Notes: a model not told the origin generated them from the sequence alone. Shown: positions 3,587 to 64,000, numbered from the stretch's first letter. The stretch: 64,000 bases of DNA from Chitinophaga pinensis (GCA_945863035.1 CAMAZH010000005.1:6655-70654), one strand, 5' to 3'. Numbers and translations: made by a program.

Positions 3587-3811
3587 AATTTTTCACAAAG
3601 CCTTTTTGCGAATATATTTCTTTTTTTAATGATAATTGCTACTTTATGTTTTTGGGCATTTCGTATGATTTGTTCTAATTTCATGGGATGCTACGAACAT
3701 AAAAACAAAACGAACCTTTGTTGTGGAAACTTCTCAAATCGAACAAATCATAAAAACCCCTTAACAACTGAAATACTCATTTCGTATATTTGATCCCTCT
3801 AAAAAAATATT

Positions 3812-5932: not shown

Positions 5933-6119
5933 GGAACGGGAGAACCTACCGGTAGTCCGGAAACTTTTCCTGTATCCTTTCCCTAATCCCGACAAATATT
6001 GTCTACATTTGTGCTCGCTAAAAAAAGAGTCACTCAGGTATTGATTTTAAGACACATGATAGAGCACAGGTGAACTTAACACCCGATGCATTGTTCTAGT
6101 TTAACTAAAATTTAACCGG

Positions 6120-7919: not shown

Positions 7920-7930
7920 TTCAAGTATCA

Positions 7931-8707: not shown

Positions 8708-8869
8708 CGGGCAAGACACTATTCTAAATGGACAAATTAGTTTCGAAAAATCAGAAATCCTGACCTATCCGGCTTTTTGAAACAAAAATTCCTTACGTTT
8801 GTTATTCCGTGTATATTTCATAAACAGTCTTGTGTATTTGAATCCTTTCACCTAGATAAATCGACTCCC

Positions 8870-41859: not shown

Positions 41860-41944
41860 CGGATCGGTCTGAAGAGGATAGTGTTAAGGGAATAAAAAAG
41901 TTGGACCAGGACAAAACATTCTTTGCCCCGGTCCGATTTCATAC

Positions 41945-47542: not shown

Positions 47543-48067
47543 TTATTTCATTTTTCTCAGCCTTTCCTTTCTGGGACATTCCTTCTTGTTGCAAATTGCA
47601 CACTGCTCATTCATCTCCATCATTTCAGTAAAGATTCCGGAAAGTTGTTCCGACTGCTTCTCGTCGCAGATTTCCTTAACGATTATGAAGTGCTTGATCG
47701 TTTGTTTTTTGATAGATGCATTCAGGTTTCCGATTCGCACAGCAATGGAATCGAGTTTTTCATCCGAGGGATTTTCGCCGGCCAATTCATCCAGGAGGGA
47801 GAAGTGTGCTTCACAAAGCAAATCTACAAGAACATGGTATGCACGGAATACTTTATCGTCTTGCTTAGCAATTTCGGCATACTGTTTTTCATCCAACTTA
47901 AGCTCTTCCCTCAAGAACTCCAGGGAGCTGATTTTCTGCTGAGCCGTGGCAGCAGGTTCTGCCGGCTTGCCGCTCATAACGATGAAAGTGGCAAATGCCG
48001 ACAGGTTGACTGTCAGCAGTACGATGTTAAGCCACTTGATTGCTCGGGATTTCGGGTTTGAGTTCAT
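47543..48067 (-). CDS. Membrane-anchored Spy/CpxP/ZraP-like (LTxxQ-type) helical protein with Cys-rich C-terminal tail
   Basis: 174 aa with an N-terminal TM helix. The LTxxQ-like motifs are LKLDEKQYAEI and ICDEKQSEQL. The C-terminus is NEQCAICNKKECPRKERLRKMK. Confidence 0.45.
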   Translation of the reverse strand: MNSNPKSRAIKWLNIVLLTVNLSAFATFIVMSGKPAEPAATAQQKISSLEFLREELKLDEKQYAEIAKQDDKVFRAYHVLVDLLCEAHFSLLDELAGENPSDEKLDSIAVRIGNLNASIKKQTIKHFIIVKEICDEKQSEQLSGIFTEMMEMNEQCAICNKKECPRKERLRKMK

Positions 48068-48081
48068 GATTATTTACCGTT

Positions 48082-48657
48082 TTACTGATAATTTTTCCTG
48101 TAATAGTTTTTCAGATTGACCCGTAGATTCTTTTTAGCTCGAAACATAAGGGATTCAACAGTTGAGAGAGATAGCTCCAACATGTCACAAATAGTCTGGT
48201 AAGAACAGCCTTCCATTTTATGAAGAATATAGACTTTCCTTTGCCTTTCAGGCAATGCGTCGAGGGCCGCATCGAGAATTTGGCGTGCCTCTTCGTTAAT
48301 AAGTGTCTTTTCGGGATTGTCGGAGCTGATTTGCTCTTTCCCGGTTTGCTGCTGGGAAAAATGAATATCGGGGGAGAAATTAAGTTTCTTGCTTTTTGCC
48401 CGCCAGTTTATCGACTTATTAAAGGCAACGCGATGCAGCCAAAAAGAGATGTCCTCGGTTTGCCTGAGCGTGGAGATCGATTGGAACGCCTCGAGGAAAA
48501 CTTCCTGTCCCACATCCTCTGCATCGTCCCTGTCGCGAAGAATTTTATAGCAGGTGTTAACGACAAGGCATTGGTATTTTACGACAAGTAATCCAAAGGC
48601 TTCGTTTTCACCCTGAAGAACTCTCTTTACCAACGCCTGATCCGAATCACCCCCCAT
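48082..48657 (-). CDS. ECF-type RNA polymerase sigma-70 family factor
   Basis: 191 aa. Region 2 is DAEDVGQEVFLEAFQS...WLHRVAFNKSINW. Region 4 is SYQTICDMLELSLSTVESLMFRAKKNL. Confidence 0.85.
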   Translation of the reverse strand: MGGDSDQALVKRVLQGENEAFGLLVVKYQCLVVNTCYKILRDRDDAEDVGQEVFLEAFQSISTLRQTEDISFWLHRVAFNKSINWRAKSKKLNFSPDIHFSQQQTGKEQISSDNPEKTLINEEARQILDAALDALPERQRKVYILHKMEGCSYQTICDMLELSLSTVESLMFRAKKNLRVNLKNYYRKNYQ

Positions 48658-49791: not shown

Positions 49792-52014
49792 CTACTCAAG
49801 AAAGGATTTCAGTAGTGTTAGCAAACCGATCGAATTCGAAATATTGTATTTAGCCAGGGAGGGGCTTAATCCGATTTTAATGGTGATAGCCGATTCGGGC
49901 ATTGCCCTGAAAAGGTATTCGTCGGTTTTATCATCCCCTGCAGCCAAAAAAAAGTCGAAATTTTCTGTTTTAATAAGAGATGTTGCAGCCTGGCCCTTAT
50001 CGAACCTGCCATTTTTAACTTCAAGTACTTTATTGCCTTCAAGGATTTCGAAATCTGTTTTATGCCGAATGATCTCTGCCAGATCGTCGCGCAACTCATG
50101 CAACCAAAGCTGGGCAAAATCGGCATCAGTATTCCGGTAATGCCAGGCTATGCTTCCGGTTTTTTCCTCAAGAAAGGTACCGTTGCAGCGGTTCACATAT
50201 TCTGTGAGAATAGGTAGAACGTCCTCTTTCCACTTTGGGTCCGAACTAAGGGTTGCGGTCCAATTTTCATTTACAGGCCTAATGAAATAGCCATGCTCTG
50301 CAACCAGGGTTACGTTTGCGCCTTCAAATTGCTTTTCGAGAAAGTCCTTTCCCCTTCCGCTAATAATAACCACCGTGTTTTTAACATCCTTCGCCAATTC
50401 CTTAACGATATCAAAAGTGCTAAGGTCAATAGTTGCCAATTCGGGGTATTTGGCAAATGGCACCAAGGTACCGTCATAATCAAGAAATATAATTCGTTTA
50501 TCAGCCTTTTGGTAATCGGAATGGATTTGCAATGAGATGGGCGTATTGACAAACTTCACGCTCATGCGCTTTTGTTGTATTTTGGTGTCGTTTGCCTGAT
50601 CGAAGAAATCAAAGGCCCAGGCAAATACGTTATAGTTCGAAATTCTCGACTGCATTCTGACAATTCTTGATTTTTTTTCTTCGAGGGGCATTTCCAGAGC
50701 AGTGCAGATTGATTCGGCAATTTCAACCTTGTCTACCGGGTTGATTAATAATGCTTCACTCAGTTCAGCCGCTGCTCCTGCCATCTCGCTAAGAATTAGC
50801 ACTCCGGTATGCTCGACCTGGCAGGCCACGTATTCCTTTGCAACCAGATTCATACCATCGCGCAGTGGAGTAATAAGACCAACATCGCTTAAATCATAGA
50901 GAGCTACCAGCTCGTTAAACGTCAAGGATTTGTACTGATAGATTATTGGCTGCCAGGCCAGGGAATTGTACTTTCCATTAATCCGCCCTACCGCATATTC
51001 GATCTCCTTTTTCATTTCCTTATACTGCTTAATCTTGCTTCGGGAAGGTACAACAACCATATTGAACACCACCCGGCCATGCCATTCGGGATGTAATTCA
51101 AGGAAGGTCTCATATCCCTGAAGCTTTAAAAGCAAACCCTTGGAATAGTCGAGCCTGTCGACCGAGAAAACCAGCTTGTAATTTGACAGAAAAGCCTTTA
51201 TCTTGCTTTTTTCAACCAGCACGCCCTCGCTCAGGCATGCGGAATGAAACTTGTCGTAATCAATTCCTATCGGGAAAGCATCGGATTTGACAAGTTTATT
51301 TGGGGTGTAGATTTGATTCTGGTGACATTCGTAGCCGGTTGTCCGCTTAACCGATTTGATGAAATTTTGAGAATAGTCATTGGTGTGAAAACCAATTAAG
51401 TCGGCTCCCAATAGTCCGTTTATGATTGACTCCCTCCAGTTTCTGGGCATTAGTCTGAATATTTCGAAGGAAGGAAATGGGATATGCAGAAAAAAACCGA
51501 TGGTTGCCTCGGGAAATTTCTGTCGGATCATCTCGGGAAGAAGCATTAGTTGATAATCGTGAATCCAGATGAAATCACCCGGCTTTATGATTTTCACGAT
51601 TTCATCGCAAAACCTGGAGTTAGCCTCCACGTAAGCCTTATAATACTCGCTTTTAAAAACACTATAGGAAGTGAAATAATGAAATAAGGGCCAAACAAGA
51701 TCGTTACAAAATCCCCCGTAATACATCTCATTTAGTTTCTCGGGCAGAATAACCGGTGCGATATCAAAAAAATCGTTCTCAAATTTAGCCCCTGATGCAC
51801 TACCGGGCAAATCATCCGCAATGCCGGCCCAAACAATTTTACTGTCGGCAATCTGGCTATTGCTTTTCCTGAAGTTCTCCGACAATGCCAGAATTGCAGA
51901 AACAAGCCCTCCCGAATTTTGCTCAGCCTTTAAGCCTTTTTTGGTTTTACTGAATTTGAAAGGCAACCGGTACGCCGCAATTACCAATCTTTCAAAATGC
52001 CTTGTTTTGTTCAT
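49792..52014 (-). CDS. otsA: Bifunctional trehalose-6-phosphate synthase (GT20) / trehalose-6-phosphate phosphatase (HAD) fusion
   Basis: The start is at the internal ATG (MNKTRHFERLVIAAYRLPF). The GT20 core is ...WIHDYQLMLLP...FFLHIPFPS...PLRDGMNLVAKEY. The C-terminal HAD motif I is IIFLDYDGTLVP, and GDDKTDE follows. Confidence 0.9.
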   Translation of the reverse strand: MNKTRHFERLVIAAYRLPFKFSKTKKGLKAEQNSGGLVSAILALSENFRKSNSQIADSKIVWAGIADDLPGSASGAKFENDFFDIAPVILPEKLNEMYYGGFCNDLVWPLFHYFTSYSVFKSEYYKAYVEANSRFCDEIVKIIKPGDFIWIHDYQLMLLPEMIRQKFPEATIGFFLHIPFPSFEIFRLMPRNWRESIINGLLGADLIGFHTNDYSQNFIKSVKRTTGYECHQNQIYTPNKLVKSDAFPIGIDYDKFHSACLSEGVLVEKSKIKAFLSNYKLVFSVDRLDYSKGLLLKLQGYETFLELHPEWHGRVVFNMVVVPSRSKIKQYKEMKKEIEYAVGRINGKYNSLAWQPIIYQYKSLTFNELVALYDLSDVGLITPLRDGMNLVAKEYVACQVEHTGVLILSEMAGAAAELSEALLINPVDKVEIAESICTALEMPLEEKKSRIVRMQSRISNYNVFAWAFDFFDQANDTKIQQKRMSVKFVNTPISLQIHSDYQKADKRIIFLDYDGTLVPFAKYPELATIDLSTFDIVKELAKDVKNTVVIISGRGKDFLEKQFEGANVTLVAEHGYFIRPVNENWTATLSSDPKWKEDVLPILTEYVNRCNGTFLEEKTGSIAWHYRNTDADFAQLWLHELRDDLAEIIRHKTDFEILEGNKVLEVKNGRFDKGQAATSLIKTENFDFFLAAGDDKTDEYLFRAMPESAITIKIGLSPSLAKYNISNSIGLLTLLKSFLE

Positions 52015-52112
52015 GTTTTGTAATTGTTGACAGGTCTGAGTAAAGATAACCCGATATCTTACAAAAACGGTAAAAAAAGTGGTAAATTGGGCTATTAACC
52101 TATATTGCACAC

Positions 52113-53162
52113 ATGGATACCTATATAAACAACGAATCCACCAAACTGGTTTTAGCAATAACCTCCTTTATTGCGGTACTTGTAATTGTCTATTTTATCT
52201 ATCGATTCATTGTATCGGGATTGCAAAGAAGAGTCTCCGTAACACCCGGGAAAATAGATGATTTCATAGTGCAGCTATTTAAGATCCCTGCCTTATGGTT
52301 GATCTACTGGATTCTTTTGAAGATCTTCACCCACGTTTTCCTGACCAGCCTAACTGTTTACCCCTATCTGCTGCACGTCAACTCATTACTTCTGATATTC
52401 GCCGTTTCGTGGGTTGCCATTCAGTTTGCAAAAGCCGGTGCCTATTATCTGCAGGGGAAACTGGATCTGAAAACTGCCAACAACCTTCAGGCACGCGAGA
52501 GGCTCACGAAAATTAAAGTATTCAACACTATTGCAAACTCGGTTATCGTAATCATTGCAATTTCTGCGGCATTGATGACTTTTGAGCAGGCACGTGCCAT
52601 AGGAATAAGTCTGTTGACTTCAGCAGGGATTATCGGGATTATTATAGGATTTGCCGCACAAAAAAGCATCGGTATGTTTCTGGCGGGCATACAACTGGCG
52701 ATTTCCCAGCCAATTCGAATCGATGATGTTGTTATTGTGGAGGAGGAATGGGGCCGGATAGAGGAAATAACACTAACCTATGTGGTAGTAAAAATCTGGG
52801 ATGAGCGCAGATTGATTTTGCCGGTAACCTATTTTCTGGAAAAGCCGTTTCAAAATTGGACTCGCAAAAGTGCCGATATTACCGGAACAATATTTCTTTA
52901 CGTGGATTACAGCTTCCCAGTGGAGAGCATCCGGAGCACACTGCCGGAATTGCTCGAAGGAAATGCCGATTGGGACGGCAGAGTGGTTAACGTACAGGTT
53001 ACCAAAGCAACCGAGCATCATAAGGAGGTAAGGATTTTGCTTAGCAGCTCCGATGCCTCAAAAAACTGGGATTTACGTACGGACATCCGGGAGAAACTTA
53101 TTGATTTTATAAACACTAATTATCCCGAGGCGTTTGCGAAAATCAGAATCAAAACCATTTAA
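52113..53162 (+). CDS. MscS-family mechanosensitive ion channel
   Basis: 349 aa. It has 4-5 N-terminal TM helices followed by the conserved pore/beta-domain FAAQKSIGMFLAGIQLAISQPIRIDDVVIVEEEWGRIEEITLTYVVVKIWD. Confidence 0.85.
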   Translation: MDTYINNESTKLVLAITSFIAVLVIVYFIYRFIVSGLQRRVSVTPGKIDDFIVQLFKIPALWLIYWILLKIFTHVFLTSLTVYPYLLHVNSLLLIFAVSWVAIQFAKAGAYYLQGKLDLKTANNLQARERLTKIKVFNTIANSVIVIIAISAALMTFEQARAIGISLLTSAGIIGIIIGFAAQKSIGMFLAGIQLAISQPIRIDDVVIVEEEWGRIEEITLTYVVVKIWDERRLILPVTYFLEKPFQNWTRKSADITGTIFLYVDYSFPVESIRSTLPELLEGNADWDGRVVNVQVTKATEHHKEVRILLSSSDASKNWDLRTDIREKLIDFINTNYPEAFAKIRIKTI

Positions 53163-53199
53163 AGCAGAGAAAATCGACCTATTGATAAAACCGCGTCTT

Positions 53200-53829
53200 T
53201 TAAGCCTTGTTTTTTTTATACCGGAATGCCTTATAAACCAGGTAAGCCACCACTAAAAAACCAAGGATCCAGAATGCGATTTTTAATTCATGATAGTACA
53301 ATTCGAGCAGATCTTTTTGAGTATAGAGAAAATAGCCAAGGGCTGTCAGCACTGCATTCCAGATCATGGCGCCCAACATGGTATACAAAATAAAATCCGG
53401 TATTCTCATTTTGCTCAGGCCGGCAGGAATAGAAATCAACTGCCGAACGGCTGGCACCAATCGACCAATAAAGGTTGACAGATTTCCATATTTGCGAAAA
53501 TAGTCCTCCGCCTTTTCTATTGATGCCGGAGTAATAAGCATCAGGTTTGCTACCCGTGTATCAGCAAGTTTGTAAATTATCTTCCTTCCCACAAACAGTG
53601 CAACATAATAATTGAACAGAGCTCCGATAAGGGCTCCCAGGGTGCTGAAAAGGAACACCAGCCAAACATTCAAATCACCCTGTGCCGCTTTCCACGCAGC
53701 AGGAGGAATAATTATTTCAGAGGGGAATGGAATAAAGGAACTCTCTATTGCCATTAACAAAGTGATTGTTCCATAATTTATGTGCGCCATATACCAATCG
53801 GCCACTGAAGTGAAAATCTCCGAAATCAT
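53200..53829 (-). CDS. DedA-family (SNARE-associated) membrane protein
   Basis: 209 aa. The motifs are ESSFIPFPSEIIIPPAA and FIGRLVPAVRQLISIPAGLSKM. Confidence 0.85.
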   Translation of the reverse strand: MISEIFTSVADWYMAHINYGTITLLMAIESSFIPFPSEIIIPPAAWKAAQGDLNVWLVFLFSTLGALIGALFNYYVALFVGRKIIYKLADTRVANLMLITPASIEKAEDYFRKYGNLSTFIGRLVPAVRQLISIPAGLSKMRIPDFILYTMLGAMIWNAVLTALGYFLYTQKDLLELYYHELKIAFWILGFLVVAYLVYKAFRYKKNKA

Positions 53830-53966
53830 TTATATCTGTTTAGTTTGCCAATATTTAACCTATACTTACCAATACGTTTCTGACAGTTGAATCAACGAGG
53901 GGGTGAAGATATAAAAATATGGCTTATGGTAATTATCCGTTAATCAAAAAACCACAGCCGGGAATT

Positions 53967-55520
53967 CTACTTTTCCAGTTTAAATATCTTAATGGAATTG
54001 TACTCTCCTATTGGCTTTGTCATAAAACTCTGTAGGTATGCTCGATTGGCTGTCTCCTCACCGTGTATAACCAAATATTTGGCACCCCTGTCAATCGATG
54101 CCTCAACAGCCGCACTGTCGGAGTTGTATCCGAGGCAACCCGTCCATCCTCTTTGATTCATGAGGTAGAGAGTGAAGTGAGTCATGTCGGGCAGGCAAAC
54201 CACGGTGTCCATGGGTGCAATACCAATCGACCGAAGGTAGGGAGTAACCTCATGGTAGTCTTTATATTCCGGATGCTCGGTCCACCAGCCATAGTAACGT
54301 CCATACATCTCATTCCGGGAATGGTTCATATTAAACAACAGGAATCCAAGAAAAAGAATCTTCAGGTAATAACCTGAGAAGGCTTTGGGGAAGCGGTTTT
54401 TCAGAACCCAACCGAAATTCACAACCACAAAAACCAGCAGGATGTAAAGGTTAATAGTATAATAATCGTGATCCTTGAAAGTCGGGAACCAAAGGAGGAC
54501 ATAGGCAACTGTTCCCAGCAACAGCAAGATGTTCACAATCATCAGAAAACGACTGGCCTTCTTGATAAACGCCAATGTAAAGAGGAATGCCGCCGATAAA
54601 AAGTAAAGCGCGTAAACATGAAAATACTGGTTAAGCCATAATCCCTTAACATTATCCAATACCATTTGAATCTGGGACGAATCGAGCTCCCAAATTGGAA
54701 TAATCCGGGTGGAGAAATAAACCGAGTTATGCAGCCCATTAAAATACTTCGCATAGAAAACCCAGGAGGCAATAACTCCAAAAGCAAACAGGATAGGCAA
54801 GGCTGTTTGAACCGGCTTTTCGAAAACCTTACCTTCAGTTCTGAATTTAAAAATATGCAGCAGCTCAATCAGAAATAGTATTGAAATGGCAACCAGGCTC
54901 ATCAGAGCCGTAATTTTAAACGCTCCTGCCAAAAGGAAAAACAATATCGCGATCAGAAAATCCCACCTTATCCGGCTGAAGTAAAATTTAAGCAAAAAAT
55001 ACCAGCCAATCAGCGCAAATGCCAGTGCTGAGGAATCAGAAAGGAAATTATTCCCATAATAAACAAGAACAGGCGATGTGAAAAAGAATAAGCTGAAAGC
55101 CGCAGACCAGAAAAAATCGCCAAAAAGCATATAACACAACTTAAACAGATAAAACAAGCCCAGCAGAAAAATCAGGGTGTTTACCAGCCGGTAGATAAAA
55201 TCGTGATAGCCGAATATTTTATAGAGACTCGCCACAAAATAATACCCGATGGGAATTTCACTCGGGGCCGAATAGCCGGATTTACTCCCGCCGGAAGTAA
55301 GATTGTGAGTCTGGGGCTGAAAGAAATGCATTCCGTTCTGGTAGTAATTCAGAGCAATGGATGCACAGTCGGACTGTCGCCAGTGATGAACAGATTGCGG
55401 CCGCTTGAGAGTTACCGAAGGGTAATTGTAAACAATGGCAAAAACCAACAACAATAAACCAAAACGAATATTTGGATTAAAAGACTGATTAATGGCCTGG
55501 ACTTTCTTGAAAAACCTCAC
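53967..55520 (-). CDS. Polytopic membrane protein, GT-C (ArnT/PMT)-fold glycosyltransferase-like
   Basis: 517 aa with about 11 TM helices and a soluble C-terminal ~100 aa. The first extracytoplasmic loop is HHWRQSDCASIALNYYQNG. The overall topology resembles 4-amino-arabinose/mannosyl transferases. The assignment is tentative. Confidence 0.4.
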   Translation of the reverse strand: MRFFKKVQAINQSFNPNIRFGLLLLVFAIVYNYPSVTLKRPQSVHHWRQSDCASIALNYYQNGMHFFQPQTHNLTSGGSKSGYSAPSEIPIGYYFVASLYKIFGYHDFIYRLVNTLIFLLGLFYLFKLCYMLFGDFFWSAAFSLFFFTSPVLVYYGNNFLSDSSALAFALIGWYFLLKFYFSRIRWDFLIAILFFLLAGAFKITALMSLVAISILFLIELLHIFKFRTEGKVFEKPVQTALPILFAFGVIASWVFYAKYFNGLHNSVYFSTRIIPIWELDSSQIQMVLDNVKGLWLNQYFHVYALYFLSAAFLFTLAFIKKASRFLMIVNILLLLGTVAYVLLWFPTFKDHDYYTINLYILLVFVVVNFGWVLKNRFPKAFSGYYLKILFLGFLLFNMNHSRNEMYGRYYGWWTEHPEYKDYHEVTPYLRSIGIAPMDTVVCLPDMTHFTLYLMNQRGWTGCLGYNSDSAAVEASIDRGAKYLVIHGEETANRAYLQSFMTKPIGEYNSIKIFKLEK

Positions 55521-55698
55521 TTGAATAAATTTTATTTAGTTCAAAAGTATGGCTTTTTGCGAAATCGCCCCAGGTTCGCACCCTTCTTAATTGAAATGAT
55601 GTCTGAAATGAAGCAATTCCCGATCTGCAAACCCTTGGTTAAAACCAGAGTCCACAAAGCCGGGAACTAAAGTAGGAAATATTTCAGAATCGAACGCG

Positions 55699-56319
55699 CT
55701 ACTCCAGGAGTTTCATCCCCTCCATTGCAGAGGAACCTGAGGGTGTATTCATCAATGCCTTATTGAACAACACTTTAGCTTCACGGTATTTTTTTAGCTG
55801 GAAATTAGTCCAGGCATACATTACCAGTCCGTCGTAATCGAAGGGATAAAGATTTACAACTTTTTCGAAATACTTTTCGGCTTTCAGAAAATCTTTCTGA
55901 CCATAGTAGATTAGTCCCAATCGGTGCATAACAACCGAATTATTCGGGGTAATCTCAAGGATTTTCTCATATTGTGCGATCACCGAATTCCAGTTTCCCA
56001 TGGCTGCCTGAGGTAAAACAATTCCTAACCGCGGTTCAATGGCAAAAGGTTTTAAAAGTATAGCCTTGTTATAATAACTTTGCGCATCGCTGAACAATCC
56101 AGAGGAATAGGTAAGCCAGCCCAATCGCAGGTTAATTTCGTAGGAGTTCTCGTCATAAACATTTCTGAGATCGAGTATGGCTTCGGCCAGATTCCCGGAA
56201 GCCTCGTGAAGGTAACTGTTCTGAAAGCCCTCAATAACTTTCGGGTAATCCTGACTAAACCCGGTAATTGTTAAAAATCCGATTAAAACCCCAATACATA
56301 ATTTTCTTAAAGTTTCCAT
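55699..56319 (-). CDS. TPR-repeat protein with signal peptide
   Basis: 206 aa. It has about four 34-aa TPR-like units (e.g. AQSYYNKAILLKP, AIAQYEKILEITPNN, AEKYFEKVVNLYP, AKVLFNKALMNTP). Its start overlaps the upstream gene by 13 nt. Confidence 0.7.
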   Translation of the reverse strand: METLRKLCIGVLIGFLTITGFSQDYPKVIEGFQNSYLHEASGNLAEAILDLRNVYDENSYEINLRLGWLTYSSGLFSDAQSYYNKAILLKPFAIEPRLGIVLPQAAMGNWNSVIAQYEKILEITPNNSVVMHRLGLIYYGQKDFLKAEKYFEKVVNLYPFDYDGLVMYAWTNFQLKKYREAKVLFNKALMNTPSGSSAMEGMKLLE

Positions 56320-57644
56320 GATATTCCAAATGTAAATGATTGATAATTAATTTCTCTGCTGTTAGTGCTGCCAAAAACATCCTCCACAGGCACGAACATC
56401 GATTCAGACTTGTAAAGACGGGCACCGGCAAAAAGTGACGCGCCCGATTTATACAAGGGTATGATAAGGCTGATCGATCTGATGTTTTTATTAAGTTCCA
56501 GACTGTTGTAGGTAAGTTCGGAAAAAGGATCGTAGAGATTCGAGAACTCCCCAAATGTTGAATATCCCTCTAACCATAAATGCTTAGCAATCTTAAAACC
56601 AAGAGTATAGGAATGCATAAACTGCTGAATTGCCGCATCTCTCTGCTTCTGACCGTGAAGGTACCCGTTTGCTGTAAGATACAGATTCAAATTGCCCAGA
56701 GGTAATATCGTCAGGGAGGCAGCGGCAGTATTCTGTTTACTCAGATTCAGGTTGGAAAGTGAACCTGCTAATGAAAGGGTAACAATGCCCAGGTTTTTCT
56801 CCAATTTTATCCCTGTCACCAATTCACTGTGACTATCGTACGAGTATACGCTTCTCTTGTTCCCGCTTCCGGCACCATACTCATAAAAGATCGGGACCCT
56901 GTAATTTATATAGGAGAATAGCGGGGATAACGTCAGTCCTTCAACCGGCGTTACATCAGCGCTAAGATGATAACTGAATTGCCTTATTTTCTGGGACTCG
57001 GAAATATAAGGGGTTGAATTCACCACCGCAAAAGCATATTCATCCTTGTTGAGCAAGTTAGCCGAATGGTGAACAATTATACTTCGTTGAATTCCGTGGC
57101 TGATTTCGAAATTAAAATTCATAAAACTATTGGGCAAAATCTGGCTACCGTCAATATCTTGGGGGGCAGTTTGGCTAACATCATCTTTAAGGGATGGATC
57201 GGCTCCTGTTCCAAAAGTCGAATTTATGCCTATTCCTGTTAATGGCTTTCGATCCTCCTTGCCCAGAAAATTCTTAAGGGCCGGGGTGAACCTCCCGGCC
57301 AATTTTTCCGCATCGGCATCGCGGGCGGTATACCGATAGCAATAGTAAAGATACTCAAGCCCTGTAGGATCATTGTTGCTGAATTCAAGCAGTTTTTTGT
57401 AATGAGGGATAGCCTTTTGATACCTGCCTTTCATGAAATAGGCATAAGCAATCCGAAGGCGCAGATAGTAATAATCAATCCCGTTGTCGATGGCTGTTGT
57501 TCCCACCTCGATAATCCTATCCCAGTCGCTGTCCAGATAAGCCCTGAATGTTGAAGTATCGGCTTCGATAAAGGTCATGGGCTGCTGTCCCGTAAGATTT
57601 TTTAAGGGGATTAGCACCAGCAATATGAGAATGAAAGTCTTCAT
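56307..57644 (-). CDS. Secreted TPR domain + predicted C-terminal beta-barrel protein
   Basis: 445 aa with a signal peptide. The N-terminal ~110 aa are TPR-like (YYYLRLRIAYAYFMKGRYQKAIPHYKKLLEFSNNDP). The rest shows amphipathic beta-strand periodicity rich in Y/S/G/N and ends ...FTFGISWKL. There is a 4-nt ATGA overlap with the upstream gene. Confidence 0.5.
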   Translation of the reverse strand: MKTFILILLVLIPLKNLTGQQPMTFIEADTSTFRAYLDSDWDRIIEVGTTAIDNGIDYYYLRLRIAYAYFMKGRYQKAIPHYKKLLEFSNNDPTGLEYLYYCYRYTARDADAEKLAGRFTPALKNFLGKEDRKPLTGIGINSTFGTGADPSLKDDVSQTAPQDIDGSQILPNSFMNFNFEISHGIQRSIIVHHSANLLNKDEYAFAVVNSTPYISESQKIRQFSYHLSADVTPVEGLTLSPLFSYINYRVPIFYEYGAGSGNKRSVYSYDSHSELVTGIKLEKNLGIVTLSLAGSLSNLNLSKQNTAAASLTILPLGNLNLYLTANGYLHGQKQRDAAIQQFMHSYTLGFKIAKHLWLEGYSTFGEFSNLYDPFSELTYNSLELNKNIRSISLIIPLYKSGASLFAGARLYKSESMFVPVEDVFGSTNSREINYQSFTFGISWKL

Positions 57645-59851
57645 CGTGTAAGGATTACTTTCCTGTTCTTGATTGTTGACTGAATGGACGCGATGCCGGA
57701 CGTGTCAATATCGATAAGGAATTCGAGTTTATCCAACTTTTTGCGGAAAAAATAATTGCTCATTATGGAAACCAGCCTGATTTCTGAAGGAGTAATCGAA
57801 TCGTCAATTTCTTTGCAGGTCAGGGTGAACTCCGATTTGGCAAACACCACAAACGGGCTTATAAAATCATAAAACCACAATATGTGTTTAGGATAGGTCA
57901 GGTAAAGCGGGAATTGATCCGTAATCATCAGATCCTGATAAAATCCCTTTTGCAATTTAAAAAGAGCCTGAAAGAACAGAAAGAGCTGGCTATTCATATT
58001 TCCCTCGAAATAAGTGAAAAAGAAAAGGTTTTTATCGTTCTCGAAAAAGGCTTTAGCTCCGGTCTGTGAACAATGCATGTACGACTGGTTATACTCGTTC
58101 ACTTTCACCTCCCACGAAACCTTTTGGCTTTCCTCTCCCTCGGTGAATGTATACTCCAGCAACTGTCCCGGAATAAAGTTGAAAGCAGAAACCAACATGT
58201 CTGTCACCTCGATATTCGAAACTTTTTGATTAATTTTCGGTTTCGAATGGGTTTGCAACAAGGTTCCTCCCTTCTTATGTTCAATGTAATTGCTCAGGGG
58301 ATAATCGAGTGTTCCCGAGCCAATGTAAGGATACGACTGAATCTGGAAATGCAGGTGGGGGAATGGCGAGCGACCCGAGTTTCCACAGTGGGCAATGATC
58401 TGTCCGAACTTGACCTCATCGCCTTTTTTAACCTTAAGGGTTCCCTTTTTCAGATGGCACAATTTCGAATACACCTCCGTGTCGTGCTTAATGATTATGG
58501 TATTCCCCCAATTATCCTTCAGATTCGACTGTCCGATCACATTGTCGTCGATCCCATCGAAAATCTCTTCAACAACCCCATCCTCCGGAGCGATAACGGG
58601 TTTGTTATAGCAAAAATAATCTTCCGGGAAATCACCCTCGTTTTTAAACTGTTTGTCTTCGTGGTTGGTAATAATAAAATCCCATGCATGCCTGTAAACT
58701 CCCTGATGCGTTATCTCGCCGCTATGCCCTTGTGAAACCTTCCAGGTTCCGTAAAAGGGAAGTTTAAAAGGCGTAAGGAATTTGTGTCTGAAACGCTCTT
58801 TGTTATTGAGGAAAATATAAAGGTTCTTTTCGGGGGAGTTATGTTGGAAATACACTTCCGACATGGTGTAGGAATAGCGCTCCCTGAATTTGAGCGAGTA
58901 CAGAAAAAGCAGCACAACCAGGTTAAAAGGGAGGGAATAGATGGGTAAGCGGAACTGCAAAAAGACGATATTCAGACTTATTGTAAGTACCGCAACAAAA
59001 GGAATCAGCAGGATCATCCACAGGTAAGCATTACGGGAGGGAATGAGAAAGAAGCCTCCCAAAGCAATGGATGAAAGAATATAATTGAACCCAAAAAAAC
59101 TATAATCATAATCGGTGATCTCAGCCCCGATAAGCCCGTAAAAGCCATATGCCAGAAAAAAACCGATGAGCGAAAGCGAAAAAGCGATTCTGGAAAAAAG
59201 CAACAATCCTATGGCCAGCACAAATCCTGTAACAATATTGTACTGGAAGAGAATAGCACTCAAAGAGATCAGATAGGCACGAATCCCACCGGGGATATTC
59301 ATATTCCTGACGAAATCATAGGTGTCGGTAAGGGGTTTCCCTCCCAGGGTATAGAGCTCATTGATGGTATAGATGCCTCTTTCGTTTATTCCCAAGGCGG
59401 TGAAACTTCCGGTGGCCAGCATAAAAGCCCAGAGGGCAAGAATGAATGGAACACTCAGAAACGGCAGACCGTATTTTCCGATAACGCCCTGAAGCGAAAC
59501 CGAGATGAAAAAGGTGAAGAGAGAAGCCAGAATTACAATAAACAACAGATAAAGCGATGGGCTGTAATACACCCCCAGGCCCAGCCCAACAAGCAGGCTG
59601 TTAAACCCCAGCAATCCCTTCTTCAAAACGCCTTTATCGAAACCCAGAATTCTCCCCGTGATTGCCGATGCAAGCACCGAAACCAGACCGAAAGCACCGG
59701 TATAAAAATCAAAAAAAGTAACGAGCATTATCAGCAAAGCAAATCCCCTGTGAGTAGAAAAAAAGATTTGTGAATAACTGTTAACGACGATTTGTAAAAA
59801 GTCACCCGCAACAGCCCTATTGCGAGCGAAAAGAAGCTTTGCTGATTTCAT
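57641..59851 (-). CDS. Fusion protein: urea-transporter (UT/SLC14)-like 10-TM domain + M23 (LytM) metallopeptidase domain + ~230-aa unknown C-terminal domain
   Basis: The track ORF starts at a TTG (59875), and the first ATG is at 59851. The N-terminus VVNSYSQIFFS is followed by about 10 TM helices (UT-like). The M23 motifs are HAWDF (HxxxD), GNTIIIKHD and GRSPFPHLHFQIQ (HxH). Confidence 0.7.
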   Translation of the reverse strand: MKSAKLLFARNRAVAGDFLQIVVNSYSQIFFSTHRGFALLIMLVTFFDFYTGAFGLVSVLASAITGRILGFDKGVLKKGLLGFNSLLVGLGLGVYYSPSLYLLFIVILASLFTFFISVSLQGVIGKYGLPFLSVPFILALWAFMLATGSFTALGINERGIYTINELYTLGGKPLTDTYDFVRNMNIPGGIRAYLISLSAILFQYNIVTGFVLAIGLLLFSRIAFSLSLIGFFLAYGFYGLIGAEITDYDYSFFGFNYILSSIALGGFFLIPSRNAYLWMILLIPFVAVLTISLNIVFLQFRLPIYSLPFNLVVLLFLYSLKFRERYSYTMSEVYFQHNSPEKNLYIFLNNKERFRHKFLTPFKLPFYGTWKVSQGHSGEITHQGVYRHAWDFIITNHEDKQFKNEGDFPEDYFCYNKPVIAPEDGVVEEIFDGIDDNVIGQSNLKDNWGNTIIIKHDTEVYSKLCHLKKGTLKVKKGDEVKFGQIIAHCGNSGRSPFPHLHFQIQSYPYIGSGTLDYPLSNYIEHKKGGTLLQTHSKPKINQKVSNIEVTDMLVSAFNFIPGQLLEYTFTEGEESQKVSWEVKVNEYNQSYMHCSQTGAKAFFENDKNLFFFTYFEGNMNSQLFLFFQALFKLQKGFYQDLMITDQFPLYLTYPKHILWFYDFISPFVVFAKSEFTLTCKEIDDSITPSEIRLVSIMSNYFFRKKLDKLEFLIDIDTSGIASIQSTIKNRKVILTR

Positions 59852-59898
59852 GCTGTTCCTATGCTTATTAACCAACTGATTTTATTTTAAGAACGGGT

Positions 59899-61257
59899 CT
59901 ACAACTTAAAATCCAACAAATACCCGGGAATCCTGTCCATAGAGTTCATCGTTTCGTGCGTCTCGTTTTCCCTGATTACATGGGTATTACCTTGTAAATC
60001 GATCATAACTACTTTTGGCCGGTAGGTGATAAACTGCATCCATTGCGTCATATTGTAAGCCCCTACCCTTTTGATCACAACCTGATCTCCCTTTTCCAGC
60101 ACGGGGAACTGAACCGCAGCTCGTATCACATCAATATTCATACATAAGGGGCCATAAATAGTGGTGTCTTCCGTATCGCGTTGCTTTATCCTGGAAGGTA
60201 CGATATGATGCTCGTACCAAAAAGAAGTAAACAGATTATTTACGCCAATGTCGATGATCAGTGACCTCCGTCCGTCGACCAGGCGTTTATTCGCCAGCAC
60301 CGTTCCCAGAATATAGCCGGCATCGTCGATAAGCGCTCGACCGGTTTCAAGGAAAAGGGTAGGCATGTGTTCGTACTGAATATCGCTGTTATTAAGGGCA
60401 GAGGTGATTGCCTCGGCATAATCGTCAAAGCTCGGACAAGTGTCGCTTCCGGGGAGATATGCTCCCTTGAGGGTATTCTTTGAGGCAAAGCCTCCGCCAA
60501 GGTCGATATATTTGATGTTGTGCTTATATTTCAACTCGATGCGCACAGCCAGGGCAGCGAGTTTTGATGTGGCAACCGAATAGGCCACCGGGGTTGTAAT
60601 GTACGTTCCGATGTGGGTATGCAGGCCCAACAGCTCCATGTTCTCATCGGGCATGATTTTATTTATTGCGCTCCAGGCCTCCCCGTTCTCAAAATTGAAA
60701 CCGAAGCGATCCCACTGGGGATAAATTCCCGTGTCCATATTGATCCTGATGGCCACTTTGGCTACCTTGCCCACCGTCGGGGCAATTGCCATGATATCGT
60801 ACAACTCATCGAAGTGGTCAATATGAATGAGTGTGCCGTTTTCTATGGCAAGCTTTAGATCTTCCCTGGATTTGTCAGGGCCGTTGAAAATAATTTTATT
60901 TCCGGGCACCCCGTTTGCAATGGCCTTTGCGTATTCAAATCCCGAAACAACTTCGGCCCAGGAGCCCTCCTGGTGAAAAACCTTGCATACGGCATTGATA
61001 TAATTCGTTTTGTACGACCAGGCGAACTGCACCTTGGGATAGCGGGTTTTAAAAGCCGAAAGGGCCTCCTTATAGGTCTTCCGAATTGTTTTCTCCGATA
61101 TTACAAATAACGGGGACCCGTATTTTTCCAACAAATCCTGCACAGCAACATCATCGATATGACTGATAGGCTGAATAGATGTGCCCATTCCGAATTTATC
61201 AGGTACGCCGGCACTGATGCGGTTTATAACCGGCCTTTCAAATTTCAATTTTTCCAT
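59899..61257 (-). CDS. Fold-type III PLP-dependent decarboxylase (DapDC/ODC/ADC family)
   Basis: 452 aa. It starts YGSPLFVISE. The PLP-Lys context is FAWSYKTNY, the phosphate-binding Gly loop is IDLGGGFAS, and the active-site Cys region is IYGPLCMNID. Confidence 0.85.
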   Translation of the reverse strand: MEKLKFERPVINRISAGVPDKFGMGTSIQPISHIDDVAVQDLLEKYGSPLFVISEKTIRKTYKEALSAFKTRYPKVQFAWSYKTNYINAVCKVFHQEGSWAEVVSGFEYAKAIANGVPGNKIIFNGPDKSREDLKLAIENGTLIHIDHFDELYDIMAIAPTVGKVAKVAIRINMDTGIYPQWDRFGFNFENGEAWSAINKIMPDENMELLGLHTHIGTYITTPVAYSVATSKLAALAVRIELKYKHNIKYIDLGGGFASKNTLKGAYLPGSDTCPSFDDYAEAITSALNNSDIQYEHMPTLFLETGRALIDDAGYILGTVLANKRLVDGRRSLIIDIGVNNLFTSFWYEHHIVPSRIKQRDTEDTTIYGPLCMNIDVIRAAVQFPVLEKGDQVVIKRVGAYNMTQWMQFITYRPKVVMIDLQGNTHVIRENETHETMNSMDRIPGYLLDFKL

Positions 61258-61267
61258 TATGCTTATT

Positions 61268-62053
61268 TTATCGGATTATAATTTTGTTGGAATGAATAAG
61301 TTGGTTCTGGTCGCTGATTGAATAAATATAGGCACCCGAACCAAGTTGCCCTACGGGGATGGACTGCATTTCGCCCTTTCTGACCGGGATTGATAAAACC
61401 CTGAGTCCATCGACCGTGTAAAGATTGAAATCGCCCTTAAAGTTTTCCGGTACGCTGCTTGTGTTTATCAAAATCTGGTCCTTTGTCGGGTTTGGAAATA
61501 CAATCTGATTTTCAAAACCAATACTCCCAATGAAATCAGACGTGCCACCCAGACTATAAACATTTGTCACAACATCATAGTATAAGCCCAGCAAATTGTA
61601 GGTATAGGTATACGCCAGCAATTTATTTTCATTGCCCACATGTTTGACCTCGGCAAAGGCCCCGCCGGGAAGGCTTAACAGTTGTGTTCCGTTTTCGTTT
61701 ACAACCCCCATGCCGTATTGGTAATAATACCATGTTTCGGTACTTACGTACTTCTCGTAGATATAAAGCAATTCGATCAGATCGTCGGTGTTGAAAATGT
61801 TTTTCGAGACAAATTTTATATCCGAGAGGTAATAGCCCTCCGGCACTGTAAGGTTAATCGTTTTCTGCAAAACATGATAGGTATTATAAATGCGGCATTG
61901 TTTCTGAGGCACGTCCATCAGAAAATACATATACTCTTCGTTGCCTACTTCGCTAACCCCGGCGGAGTATGGGTAAGAATGCTCGATAGTAATCTGGGTC
62001 AGGGCCAGAACTGTATTGAAGAAGAAAACTGCTGAAAATAATAGTGTTCTCAT
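61268..62053 (-). CDS. Hypothetical secreted protein with T9SS C-terminal sorting domain
   Basis: The internal ATG gives the signal peptide MRTLLFSAVFFFNTVLALTQ. The CTD is VFPNPTKDQILINT...GAYIYSISDQ...KIIIR. The N-terminal ~170 aa are Tyr-rich with no recognisable domain. Confidence 0.6.
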   Translation of the reverse strand: MRTLLFSAVFFFNTVLALTQITIEHSYPYSAGVSEVGNEEYMYFLMDVPQKQCRIYNTYHVLQKTINLTVPEGYYLSDIKFVSKNIFNTDDLIELLYIYEKYVSTETWYYYQYGMGVVNENGTQLLSLPGGAFAEVKHVGNENKLLAYTYTYNLLGLYYDVVTNVYSLGGTSDFIGSIGFENQIVFPNPTKDQILINTSSVPENFKGDFNLYTVDGLRVLSIPVRKGEMQSIPVGQLGSGAYIYSISDQNQLIHSNKIIIR

Positions 62054-62057
62054 GGCT

Positions 62058-63116
62058 TTAGTTTTTTTTCTCGATTTCACCAAATATTGAAAGTTGCTCA
62101 AATTCCTGAATATCGCCTAACAAATCCCACGAATACCGAATAAACATTTTTCCAACCTGGTAAGTGGTAAACGGGGCAACCTCAATACCCATTGCAAGTT
62201 TTACCAGGGCTTCGGGAATGTTCTGTCCGGCTCCCACAGCCAGGTAAACCCAGGCGGGAATCCGGGGGTTGATTTCAATCATGTAATAATCGCCCGTGTT
62301 GGTCTTAATCATCTCCAGCTCCATCCCTCCCCTCCATTTGGTTTTTGAAATCAAATCTTTTGTAATGCGTATCATTTCCTGATCGCTGAGGGTTATGCCA
62401 CTCCAGGCTTTGCCTTTATCGGTTATAAACTGCTTCCTCATGGGCACCGCAGCTATAGTATTACCAAGCCCGTCGCCCAAGGCAACCACGTTTACCTCCG
62501 TGCCCTTTATAAACTCCTGGATGATAACCGGCAAGCCCCATTTAGCGCTTATTTTATTGAAATGGCTGGTAACCTGTTCGCTGTTATAAGCTACGTAGGC
62601 GTCATAGAACTTACCCTTAACAAGAAGAGGGTACTCGAATTCTTCATCAAGCTTTTTGATGTCGCTGTAACCGGTTAGAATCTTGCTTTTGGGAACTTTG
62701 ATCCCATATTTCTCACCATACTTTTCGAGGTTTGCTTTGTGTCGTTCCTCGAACTGCTCAAAGGTGGGCAGGAAAGTAGCGATCCCTAAATCCTGTAGTT
62801 TGGACTGTGACTTCATGAAAGTGTAAAGCTCAGCGTCGAGGTTCGGGATAATCAGGTTTATAGGATCTTTTTCGTGTATCTGAACAATGCGCTCCATATA
62901 GGCTTCGGTTCCTGTGGAAGGATAAGGGATCATATAAGTTTTGTCGATCATCCCGGGCATATAAATCCCCGGCTCAAGGTTTTCATAGGCAAGACCTATG
63001 ATGCGGGCATCTATTTCCTTTGATTCCAGTATCCCCCTGATAACAGGAATCCCGGGTCCGGGATTGTCAGTGTTGCTTAAGCCTGTAACCGCGATGGTAA
63101 GTTTCATCTTTTCCAT
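62058..63116 (-). CDS. ATP-grasp family carboxylate-amine/peptide ligase
   Basis: The likely start is the ATG at 63116 (MEKMKLTIAVTG), 1 nt after the PqqD-like stop. The ATP-grasp core is YPLLVKGKFY...VIIQEFIKGTEVNVVAL...GGMELEMIKTNTGDYYMIEINPRIPAW. Confidence 0.8.
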   Translation of the reverse strand: MEKMKLTIAVTGLSNTDNPGPGIPVIRGILESKEIDARIIGLAYENLEPGIYMPGMIDKTYMIPYPSTGTEAYMERIVQIHEKDPINLIIPNLDAELYTFMKSQSKLQDLGIATFLPTFEQFEERHKANLEKYGEKYGIKVPKSKILTGYSDIKKLDEEFEYPLLVKGKFYDAYVAYNSEQVTSHFNKISAKWGLPVIIQEFIKGTEVNVVALGDGLGNTIAAVPMRKQFITDKGKAWSGITLSDQEMIRITKDLISKTKWRGGMELEMIKTNTGDYYMIEINPRIPAWVYLAVGAGQNIPEALVKLAMGIEVAPFTTYQVGKMFIRYSWDLLGDIQEFEQLSIFGEIEKKN

Positions 63117-63117
63117 G

Positions 63118-63372
63118 TTAATCTTCCTCTTTCTCAATTAAATTAAATTGCCTCAGCATCATCAGGAACTCATCAAGATACCTGTGGAAAACATGGTCTT
63201 CGATGTCATAATTTTCAAGTACGGACTTCAAAATATCACTTTGGCTTTTCCCCTCGGCCAGCTGTTTGAAAATGATCTGTCCCGTTTTATTGAGATTAAA
63301 GGATTCTCCTGTATTTGGATCGAAAAGGAAGCCCGTCTCGCTAACGGCTATGTCTTTTTTTATTTTTATCAT
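63118..63372 (-). CDS. PqqD-family small protein (stand-alone RiPP recognition element-like)
   Basis: 84 aa. GFLFDPNTGESFNLNKTGQIIFKQLAEGKSQSDILKSVLENYDIE...DEFLMMLRQFNLI matches the PqqD/RRE winged-helix pattern (beta-strands, then three helices). It is the first gene of the operon. Confidence 0.65.
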   Translation of the reverse strand: MIKIKKDIAVSETGFLFDPNTGESFNLNKTGQIIFKQLAEGKSQSDILKSVLENYDIEDHVFHRYLDEFLMMLRQFNLIEKEED

Positions 63373-63584
63373 AATGCCATGTTTTTAATTTGCAATTATT
63401 CAGAATATTCGGTGTTGGGCGATTTCTCTAAAAACAGTTTTCAATTCTTTTGATGAATGGTAAGGTAAAAGGTTTAATCCAGAATTAAAAAAAAACATAA
63501 AATTCACACAAATCAGCATAAGCCACTAATTATCACAGGGTAAAAATTAATCATTCCCGGCCCTCTTTTCAATTACCAAAGAGC

Positions 63585-63641
63585 GTCTTTATAAAATCTT
63601 TATACTGAAGTCCCAAATAATTACAAAGTCTTTATAAAATC
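63585..63641. promoter_or_regulatory. Two perfect 14-bp direct repeats in the divergent promoter region between the PqqD operon and trkH
   Basis: GTCTTTATAAAATC occurs at ~63585-63598 and again at ~63628-63641. The centre-to-centre spacing is 43 bp, about four helical turns. The region is AT-rich. Any function is speculative. Confidence 0.25.
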
Positions 63642-63737
63642 CATGTTTTATTTGCGCATTCTTTATGGAAGGTTTAATCTCCTTGATACAGTTCATGTGA
63701 TCATGTAATAACCTGCCCTATACCATTAGGCAATTGA

Positions 63738-64000
63738 ATGACAAGTATTATTAATTTCAAGATTGTATTTAAGGTAATCAGTCGCAACCTTTTCATCATC
63801 TCAGTATCTCTGCTGGCTTGTGCTTTGGTGGCAGTTTACTATTCCGAAGAGATCTTTCCCTTTTTAATTTCCTCATTAGTTTCCTTAATTGTTGGCTTAG
63901 GGTTCTACCTGGCAACCAGAGAACAAGTCGAAAACGATAGTCTGCAAAAGAAGGAGGCCTACCTTACGGTTACATTGTCATGGCTGTTTATAAGTCTGGC
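63738..64000 (+). CDS. trkH: TrkH-family potassium uptake protein (N-terminal fragment; runs off the window end)
   Basis: My translation is MTSIINFKIVFKVISRNLFIISVSLLACALVAVYYSEEIFPFLISSLVSLIVGLGFYLATRE...KEAYLTVTLSWLFISL. This resembles the TrkH N-terminus. Confidence 0.7.
   Translation, partial: MTSIINFKIVFKVISRNLFIISVSLLACALVAVYYSEEIFPFLISSLVSLIVGLGFYLATREQVENDSLQKKEAYLTVTLSWLFISL

Follow-up and report, generated by a model that had tools for sequence, protein, structure and literature searches.

A conserved bacterial operon couples a PqqD-like protein, an ATP-grasp ligase and a FigC-like decarboxylase to a urea-transporter-fold protein fused to an M23 peptidase

What might a bacterium make, or modify, with a PqqD-like protein, an ATP-grasp ligase, a pyridoxal 5'-phosphate (PLP) decarboxylase, and a urea transporter (UT)-fold channel fused to an M23 metallopeptidase? 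These genes stand together in a 64,000-nucleotide stretch of DNA from Chitinophaga pinensis (GCA_945863035.1, CAMAZH010000005.1:6655-70654). We call the whole of this stretch the window and count positions from its first letter. The locus, at 55699-63372 on the minus strand, is a genuine seven-gene operon. Its six-gene core encodes the PqqD-like protein, the ATP-grasp ligase, the PLP decarboxylase, the UT::M23 fusion, a protein with a tetratricopeptide repeat (TPR) domain and a 14-strand β-barrel, and a secreted TPR protein. An accessory gene encodes a protein with a type IX secretion system (T9SS) tail. No curated family, defense model, or paper in the searchable literature assigns a pathway to this gene set, in agreement with a preliminary description of the locus that was made from its sequence alone. 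We tentatively suggest, with a little less than an even chance of being right, that the operon builds a small amino-acid-derived compound by ligation and decarboxylation, and that the product is cleaved at the channel and passed outward.

ORF calling returned seven tightly packed open reading frames (ORFs), with the same coordinates and junctions as the preliminary description. In operon order, gaps of 1, 4, 10, and 23 nt are followed by a 4-nt ATGA overlap and a 13-nt overlap. These figures assume ATG starts at 63116 for the ATP-grasp gene and at 62053 for the T9SS gene. The 23-nt gap assumes a TTG start at 59875 for the UT-M23 gene, and it becomes 47 nt with the ATG at 59851. The domain assignments of all seven genes hold in Pfam and NCBIfam searches and, for the barrel, in an AlphaFold model.

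Databases list over 3,000 homologues of the UT::M23 fusion protein, most of them with a Bacteroidales or Bacteroidota annotation, and a scan of one genome per species counted at least 562 loci that encode its relatives. The carriers are mostly metagenome-assembled genomes (MAGs). We fetched 80 of these loci and searched them by tblastn with the window proteins. Because the 80 loci were sampled via the fusion protein, the conservation of its neighbors is conditional on its presence; the reverse sampling, via the ATP-grasp protein, covered 11 contexts only. The PqqD, ATP-grasp, and decarboxylase genes precede the fusion gene in 59 of the 60 loci with enough upstream DNA, and the barrel and TPR genes follow it in all 67 loci with enough downstream DNA. 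Where both flanks are present, the six core genes keep identical order and orientation in 51 of 52 loci. Median gaps across the loci are -8 nt between the PqqD and ATP-grasp genes, -13 nt between the UT-M23 and barrel genes, and -13 nt between the barrel and TPR genes. Identity to the window proteins is 61 to 90% for the ligase (71 loci) and 59 to 91% for the decarboxylase. It is 40 to 84% for the TPR protein, 49 to 81% for the fusion, 36 to 81% for the PqqD-like protein, and 24 to 64% for the barrel protein.

The preliminary description had treated all seven genes as one unit. Six of them form that unit, but the gene for the secreted T9SS-tailed protein (261 aa; 61268..62053, minus strand, like all the genes of the operon) was detected in only 26 of the 52 loci and is an accessory. 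Its position also varies: in 12 loci it lies in the interval between the ATP-grasp and decarboxylase genes, and in the other 14 it follows the TPR gene, 13 times on the same strand and once on the opposite one. The protein matches Por_Secre_tail (34 bits) and TIGR04183 through its type-A C-terminal sorting domain (about 61274-61501). Its N-terminal domain has no recognized fold, and comparison with solved structures matched the tail alone.

The full six-gene core is also present in Hymenobacter gummosus, in a Myxococcales MAG, and on two further contigs. The co-occurrence of the genes in other genomes is therefore confirmed, and the core crosses phylum boundaries. Chloroherpeton thalassium (Chlorobiota; L081, CP001100.1) carries at least part of it, namely the decarboxylase, UT, M23, barrel, and TPR genes. 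Its decarboxylase is 82% identical to that of the window, an identity across phyla that suggests horizontal transfer. The Chloroherpeton UT and M23 domains are in different frames (1673-3927 of that locus) through a frameshift in an A-run within the linker. An insertion of about 6 kb (3927-10000), with a gene for a 1260-aa AAA_11/AAA_12 helicase-like protein, separates the M23 and barrel genes.

Searching exhaustively with the ATP-grasp protein, we obtained 231 clusters (50% identity) with E values below 1e-30. The relatives include an ATP-grasp::decarboxylase fusion protein of 871 aa (P0257), a PqqD::ATP-grasp fusion protein of 477 aa in which PqqD is N-terminal (P0321), and tandem ATP-grasp proteins of about 710 aa. 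These distant relatives also led, from a starting point independent of the UT::M23 protein, to four loci with the order PqqD, ATP-grasp (single or tandem), decarboxylase, UT::SIR2; a Rokubacteria MAG and a Nitrospinota MAG are among them. These UT::SIR2-type fusions lie at 12541-14229 of L085, 12541-14256 of L087, 6041-7750 of L091, and 7233-9344 of L086. A GNAT acetyltransferase domain is added in one of the four (UT::SIR2::GNAT), and a secreted TPR protein is encoded upstream in three. The SIR2 domains have the usual sirtuin motifs GAGxS, QNVD, HG, and Cys4, as read directly from the sequences. Two other loci (L084, 8603-15148; L088, 7681-14108) encode PqqD, an ATP-grasp::decarboxylase protein of 914 to 934 aa, a DUF5939 protein, and a Ser/Thr kinase, without a UT domain. 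One distant ATP-grasp relative is isolated in an unrelated gene context. The invariant unit is PqqD plus ATP-grasp plus decarboxylase. Carriers of this trio belong to Bacteroidota, Myxococcota, Rokubacteria (Methylomirabilota), and Nitrospinota, and a portion of the cluster occurs in Chlorobiota. The window locus is one representative of a widespread module, whose six-gene core is found in hundreds of species. The trio is usually joined to a UT channel with an amide-cleaving domain at its cytoplasmic end, and usually also to a secreted TPR protein. The two kinds of fusion bear out the earlier proposal that the ligase and the decarboxylase act together. The earlier interpretation also gains support from the grouping of the decarboxylase with enzymes that decarboxylate tethered amino acids.

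The decarboxylase (452 aa; 59899..61257, core gene 3) has the alanine-racemase fold and is FigC/FslC-like, with Pfam matches to Orn_Arg_deC_N (110 bits) and Orn_DAP_Arg_deC (52 bits). Its best solved relative is the N-citrylornithine decarboxylase FigC/FslC (7kh2, 3.4e-56), followed by an archaeal diaminopimelate (DAP) decarboxylase (1twi, 8.9e-48) and BtrK (about 1e-25). When the decarboxylase alignment is compared with the residues that PMC7857480 discusses, the enzyme has both the PLP lysine, K83, and the catalytic cysteine, C372. Across 72 orthologues, there is little or no variation at K83, T344, W347, Y348, C372-M373, and Q405. The residue after the catalytic cysteine is Met in both the window decarboxylase and FigC, whereas it is acidic in ornithine, arginine, and DAP decarboxylases (PMC7857480). 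The DAP decarboxylase arginine that binds the distal DAP carboxylate aligns with Thr344, the equivalent of FigC T327. We rejected an assignment as LysA: the TIGR01048 lysA score of 235 bits is below the cut-off of 298, Thr344 replaces the DAP-binding arginine, and Met373 follows Cys372. Membership in the FslC/FigC family was also rejected, with 222 bits against a cut-off of 500 for NF041039 and with the citrate-contacting residues not kept. The proposed citrate residues of FigC, H357, R387, and N389, are I375, Q405, and M407 in the window enzyme, again invariant or nearly so. Within the FigC clade, SbnH, AcsE, MccE, and BtrK decarboxylate attached amino-acid moieties, and DAP decarboxylases and D-ornithine decarboxylase stand alongside (PMC7857480). 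From this pattern we infer that the substrate is probably a tethered amino acid with a distal group other than citrate.

Two known systems combine a ligase and a decarboxylase in a similar manner. In the FigA/FigC (FslA/FslC) rhizoferrin pathway of Francisella, ligation comes first and is followed by decarboxylation of the tethered amino acid (PMC7857480). FigC is the closest enzyme among solved structures, and it shares with the window decarboxylase the Met after the catalytic cysteine and the Thr at the DAP decarboxylase arginine position. However, the ligase there is an NRPS-independent siderophore (NIS) synthetase of the IucA/IucC type, rather than ATP-grasp plus PqqD, and the membrane partner is a major facilitator superfamily exporter rather than UT::M23. 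The butirosin enzymes BtrI/BtrJ/BtrK also resemble the window in pairing an ATP-grasp ligase, BtrJ, with an alanine-racemase-fold decarboxylase that acts on a tethered amino acid. Unlike the butirosin cluster, the window has no acyl carrier protein, its small partner is PqqD-like, and the rest of the cluster is unrelated.

The rhizoferrin parallel raises the question of whether the operon encodes an analogous metallophore pathway, in which ATP-grasp would replace the NIS synthetase. FigC is the closest solved relative of the decarboxylase, and some neighboring genes would fit. In about 40 of 59 loci, the PqqD gene is next to a gene for an AraC-type regulator (about 190 aa), whose N terminus is MxCxxC-like in many orthologues. 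DUF2202 proteins, extracytoplasmic function (ECF) sigma/anti-sigma sets, and occasional TonB-dependent receptors are further recurrent neighbors. However, these neighbors are clade specific, the CxxC motif is not in all regulators, and Pfam calls no HMA domain. The regulator is absent from the window, where the PqqD gene and a divergent membrane-protein gene are only 365 nt apart; between these two genes the closest relative (L001, 1663-3640) has both a 189-aa AraC-type regulator and a 422-aa secreted protein, neither of them in the window. Moreover, FigC H357, R387, and N389 are replaced by I, Q, and M, and the UT pore is too narrow for known siderophores. We regard a metallophore product as very unlikely.

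The ligation step would fall to the first two core genes. The ATP-grasp ligase (352 aa; 62058..63116, core gene 2) matches ATPgrasp_Ter with 38 bits and ATP-grasp_3 with 32 bits, and its Mg/ATP motif E-x-N-x-R (IEINPR) is invariant. The best NCBIfam match is PRK12767, "CPS-like," at 105 bits against a cut-off of 390. In a profile search, the closest solved structures were the carbamoyl-phosphate synthetase ATP-grasp module (3e-10) and 2pn1, and no characterized peptide ligase was matched at E <0.01. The PqqD-like protein (84 aa; 63118..63372, core gene 1) has the peptide-binding fold of the recognition element (RRE) of ribosomally synthesized and posttranslationally modified peptides (RiPPs). 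It matches Pfam PqqD with 41 bits (cut-off, 23), and every NCBIfam PqqD-type equivalog is below its cut-off. The orthologues share the N-terminal motif KKNIAVSESGFxFDPxTGESxSLN, a canonical strand-turn-strand. We considered the C-terminal tail, which is usually acidic, as a LysW-type carrier attachment site and rejected it: the length and the last residue vary, the tail is not acidic in the Myxococcales homologue, and it is internal in P0321.

The preliminary description had taken the PqqD-like protein as a sign of a RiPP-style pathway. The RRE-type match is present, but this reading lacks its central element because no precursor peptide gene is conserved. When all ORFs of at least 12 aa in the 700 nt that precede the PqqD gene were clustered across 59 loci, no conserved precursor peptide ORF was found, and only the AraC-type regulator gene and antisense frames recurred. 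Between the core genes, most gaps leave no room for a precursor gene. The region between the PqqD gene and the divergent membrane-protein gene, which runs off the window end, is the presumed promoter (63373..63737, serving the minus strand), and it contains no ORF conserved with related loci. A scan for sigma-70-type promoters and terminators found sites no more frequently than in shuffled sequence, and an Rfam search of 53000-64000 at E<=1 gave no riboswitch, its sole match being a chance long noncoding RNA. A small lipoprotein of 54 to 55 aa, with a lipobox followed by a Thr/Pro/Gly-rich tail, is encoded at differing positions in two loci, L090 (7375-7539) and L082 (16505-16672), of the Hymenobacter type; neither the window nor the Bacteroidales loci gave a homologue. 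We also noted a 101-aa ORF on the plus strand (63148-63453), antisense to the PqqD gene and longer than it, which a simple longest-ORF gene call picks in place of the real gene but which is probably spurious.

The known pathways that the preliminary description had set aside do not fit the operon. For lasso peptides, the seven proteins include neither an Asn-synthetase-like cyclase nor a transglutaminase-like protease, and the lasso PqqD models score 29 to 36 bits against cut-offs of 70 to 80. For graspetides, there is no maturase model among the NCBIfam matches at E<=0.01 and no precursor gene. For pyrroloquinoline quinone, pqqA, pqqB, pqqC, and pqqE are absent from the operon and the sampled neighboring genes. 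PADLOC models gave zero matches to the seven proteins, so the operon is no known antiphage defense system. The operon has some likeness to RRE-dependent RiPP pathways and to scaffold-peptide ("pearlin") pathways, for example that for 3-thiaglutamate. It shares with them a PqqD-type recognition protein, sometimes fused to a modifying enzyme, and a peptidase that could free the product from a scaffold. These pathways differ in that the window has no conserved precursor or scaffold, uses an ATP-grasp ligase rather than a tRNA-dependent one, and has its peptidase fused to a channel.

That fusion is encoded by core gene 4 (57641..59875) and has a length of 736 aa if translation starts at the ATG (59851) or 744 aa if it starts at the TTG (59875). 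It has a UT-fold channel domain (58895..59794; Pfam UT, 217 bits), an M23 (LytM-type) metallopeptidase domain that is predicted to be cytoplasmic (58337..58756; Peptidase_M23, 62 bits), and a C-terminal domain of about 217 aa (57644..58294). The last of these is mostly β strand with high model confidence, and it had no match in Pfam or PDB profile searches. Both LPxxSxPF motifs of the UT domain are kept, as LPFLSVPF and LPIYSLPF. In Foldseek, the AlphaFold model (predicted local distance difference test [pLDDT], 77.6) matches the Desulfovibrio vulgaris urea transporter with a template modeling (TM) score on target of 0.71 to 0.77. It also matches human urea transporters (TM-score on target, about 0.7) and M23 domains. 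The protein thus shares with the urea transporters Yut and D. vulgaris UT the fold and the duplicated LPxxS/TxPF signature. Unlike them, it is fused to an enzyme domain, and its urea_trans_yut score of 123 bits is below the cut-off of 275. Urease and allophanate genes are absent from every sampled neighborhood.

Across 71 orthologues, M23 residues H382, D391, H466, H499, and H501 do not vary, and 67 of the orthologues also have H388. The zinc-binding and catalytic His/Asp residues are therefore intact. The UT N terminus and the linker after the UT domain are K/R rich (linker mean, 7.9 K+R), and the central loop is net negative. Urea transporters have an N-in/C-in topology. Given this topology and the K/R-rich flanks, the M23 and C-terminal domains are probably in the cytoplasm. 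The peptidase had been listed as an envelope component; it is more likely a cytoplasmic partner of the enzymes. The loop between the UT half-repeats (58871-59410, residues about 149 to 192) has about 40 residues, is predicted to be periplasmic, and has invariant R158, G159, I160, N164, G170, and G171; model confidence in it is very low. This loop could be a docking site for periplasmic TPR proteins.

An M23 domain together with a DAP-decarboxylase-like enzyme and a ligase might instead act on peptidoglycan stem peptides, in modification or recycling of the cell wall peptide. Characterized M23 enzymes cleave peptidoglycan cross-links, and the decarboxylase is related to LysA. However, the M23 domain here is probably cytoplasmic and is replaced by SIR2 in other phyla. 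The decarboxylase has neither the DAP-binding arginine nor the acidic residue adjoining the catalytic cysteine, and the surroundings include no conserved mur, ddl, or recycling genes. A role in the cell wall is therefore highly improbable.

The last two core genes encode outer-membrane and secreted proteins. The outer-membrane protein (445 aa; 56307..57644, core gene 5) has a signal peptide, and its gene starts in a 4-nt overlap with the end of the UT-M23 gene. By sequence it gave only subthreshold TPR matches in Pfam. Its AlphaFold model (pLDDT, 90.7), for which the prediction used database homologues, has seven N-terminal helices and then 14 strands, corresponding to a TPR-like helical domain (about 57264-57572) and a 14-strand β-barrel (about 56313-57242). 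The secreted TPR protein (206 aa; 55699..56319, core gene 6) has strong TPR matches, and its identity across loci (40 to 84%) is well above that of the barrel protein (24 to 64%). In the preliminary description these two proteins were likened to PgaA/BcsC porins and to AlgK. The analogy finds no support: the barrel has 14 strands, its best Foldseek matches are FadL and OmpG, with BcsC 21st and AlgE 49th, and the conserved set has no polysaccharide synthase. Polymer export of the PgaA/BcsC/AlgK-AlgE type is likewise unsupported, with no synthase or glycosyltransferase in the conserved core and a barrel that is not specifically related. Slam (type XI) outer-membrane proteins have an N-terminal TPR domain and a 14-strand barrel, and the model of the barrel protein shows a likeness to this architecture. 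However, the barrel protein has no Pfam match to the Slam (DUF560-type) barrel, and a weak TPR_Slam match is on the other TPR protein only.

The best structural matches of the barrel are uptake channels, and urea transporters are passive bidirectional channels. The flow might therefore be inward. The barrel and TPR proteins would capture a small external amide or ureido compound, the UT channel would admit it, the amidase would cleave it, and the ligase and decarboxylase would convert it. TonB-dependent receptors adjoin some loci, in keeping with such uptake. On the other hand, catabolic pathways do not usually employ an ATP-dependent ligase that has a PqqD partner, and no conserved urease, amidase, or other catabolic genes are nearby. 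The high identity of the ligase (61 to 90%) and decarboxylase (59 to 91%) points to one fixed, dedicated substrate. We consider uptake quite unlikely.

The outward pathway that we tentatively favor would run as follows. In the cytoplasm, the ATP-grasp ligase, with help from the PqqD-like protein, would form an amide bond between an amino acid and a partner that bears a carboxylate or an amine, maybe a peptide or a small scaffold encoded elsewhere. The FigC-like decarboxylase would then strip the α-carboxylate from the tethered amino acid to give an aminoalkyl amide. The amide-cleaving domain on the cytoplasmic end of the UT domain, M23 here and SIR2-family in other phyla, would free the product at the channel mouth, and the small polar product would pass through the UT-type pore to the periplasm. 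There, the secreted TPR protein and the TPR/14-strand barrel protein may handle or release it, with the T9SS-tailed protein as an optional extracellular partner.

The exchange between M23 and SIR2 is the most informative clue. M23 DD-endopeptidases cleave the amide from D-Ala to DAP, and sirtuins act on acyl groups of lysine side chains. Both are amide-cleaving domains, and the bond that they cleave would be of the same kind as the one that the ATP-grasp ligase would make to a diamino acid. The same clue fits a reversible modification of a protein or peptide, in which ATP-grasp/PqqD and the decarboxylase would write a decarboxylated aminoacyl group and M23 or SIR2 would erase it. The mark might be an amide of GABA-like or aminoalkyl type, carried by lysine or by an acidic residue, the target might be encoded elsewhere or in the cluster, and the UT domain might serve as an anchor or sensor. 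PqqD-type domains bind peptides, the ATP-grasp enzymes RimK and LysX modify proteins, and sirtuins deacylate lysine side chains; SIR2 or SIR2 plus GNAT replaces M23 in other phyla. With no conserved precursor gene, the target could be a full-length protein, and the variant with DUF5939 and a kinase has no channel. However, the strict conservation of the UT signature motifs speaks for a functional pore. Conservation of the cytoplasmic genes also extends to the secreted TPR protein and the outer-membrane barrel, and no candidate target was found. We judge reversible modification to be unlikely, down to the particular marks and targets just named.

Several points weigh against the synthesis and outward passage of a small compound. 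There is no conserved precursor peptide or scaffold gene in the cluster or adjoining it, and the ATP-grasp sequence is nearest to bicarbonate- or carbamate-activating enzymes rather than to peptide ligases. Ligation followed by cleavage looks futile unless it follows a protecting-group or scaffold logic. The UT pore is narrow, so that only a very small product could pass, and the choice of export over import is an assumption. In two loci, DUF5939 and a Ser/Thr kinase take the place of the UT fusion, which suggests signaling rather than export.

The closest known logic for the enzymes is that of FigA/FigC and BtrJ/BtrK, and the closest concept for the fusion is a peptidase-bearing ATP-binding cassette (ABC) exporter. 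In bacteriocin ABC exporters, a C39 peptidase is fused to the transporter. The likeness to UT::M23 is functional only: both would have a cytoplasmic cleaving domain on a membrane conduit, with cleavage coupled to passage. Unlike these exporters, the window has as its conduit a passive UT-fold channel, and the cleaver is M23 or SIR2. It is conceivable, although we are inclined to doubt it, that the loci represent a new, cross-phylum class of biosynthetic module, in which PqqD/ATP-grasp and a FigC-like decarboxylase make a small amine-type compound on a scaffold and an amidase-UT channel couples cleavage to passage. With similar reserve, such a module might be seen as a passive-channel counterpart of the peptidase-containing ABC exporters, with a TPR and barrel route in the Bacteroidota and the Myxococcales MAG sampled. 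If the proposed mechanism is right, the operon would point to a bacterial metabolite or protein modification that is common yet so far overlooked, the urea-transporter fold would acquire a function beyond urea transport, and product release would be coupled to membrane passage in a new way. Cultured carriers, among them Hymenobacter gummosus, Labilibacter marinus, Saccharicrinis, and Chloroherpeton thalassium, make direct testing possible.

Some neighboring genes recur around related loci. Pairs of LytS/LytTR-type two-component genes do so in particular clades. The DUF2202 protein, of about 216 aa and apparently a lipoprotein, is encoded immediately beside the cluster in about 18 loci (L023-L025, L052, L058, L062, L066, L072, L075, and others). 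Its gene is either co-directional and before the PqqD gene or divergent with the AraC-type regulator. About 7 kb downstream of the operon, at 47543-48657, the window encodes an ECF sigma factor and a 174-aa membrane-anchored protein. Homologues of both are directly upstream of the PqqD gene in Saccharicrinis-type loci (L019, L021, L022, L029, L039, L057, and L063). These loci also encode an anti-sigma factor there, as well as a small secreted protein that contains GNG repeats and D-x-D-G-x-C-D motifs.

The first genes downstream of the operon, after a 178-nt gap, encode a PMT_2-like membrane protein and a DedA/UptA-like protein. We rejected them as operon members, as no relative of either was detected in the 80 related loci. 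The window also encodes, at 49792-53829, a fused trehalose-6-phosphate synthase/phosphatase (GT20 plus Trehalose_PPase), an MscS-type mechanosensitive channel, and the DedA/UptA-like protein. Farther on, at 39145-45148, the gene for a 1067-aa T9SS-tailed protein with BNR, PKD, and HYR domains adjoins that for a 904-aa TonB-dependent receptor.

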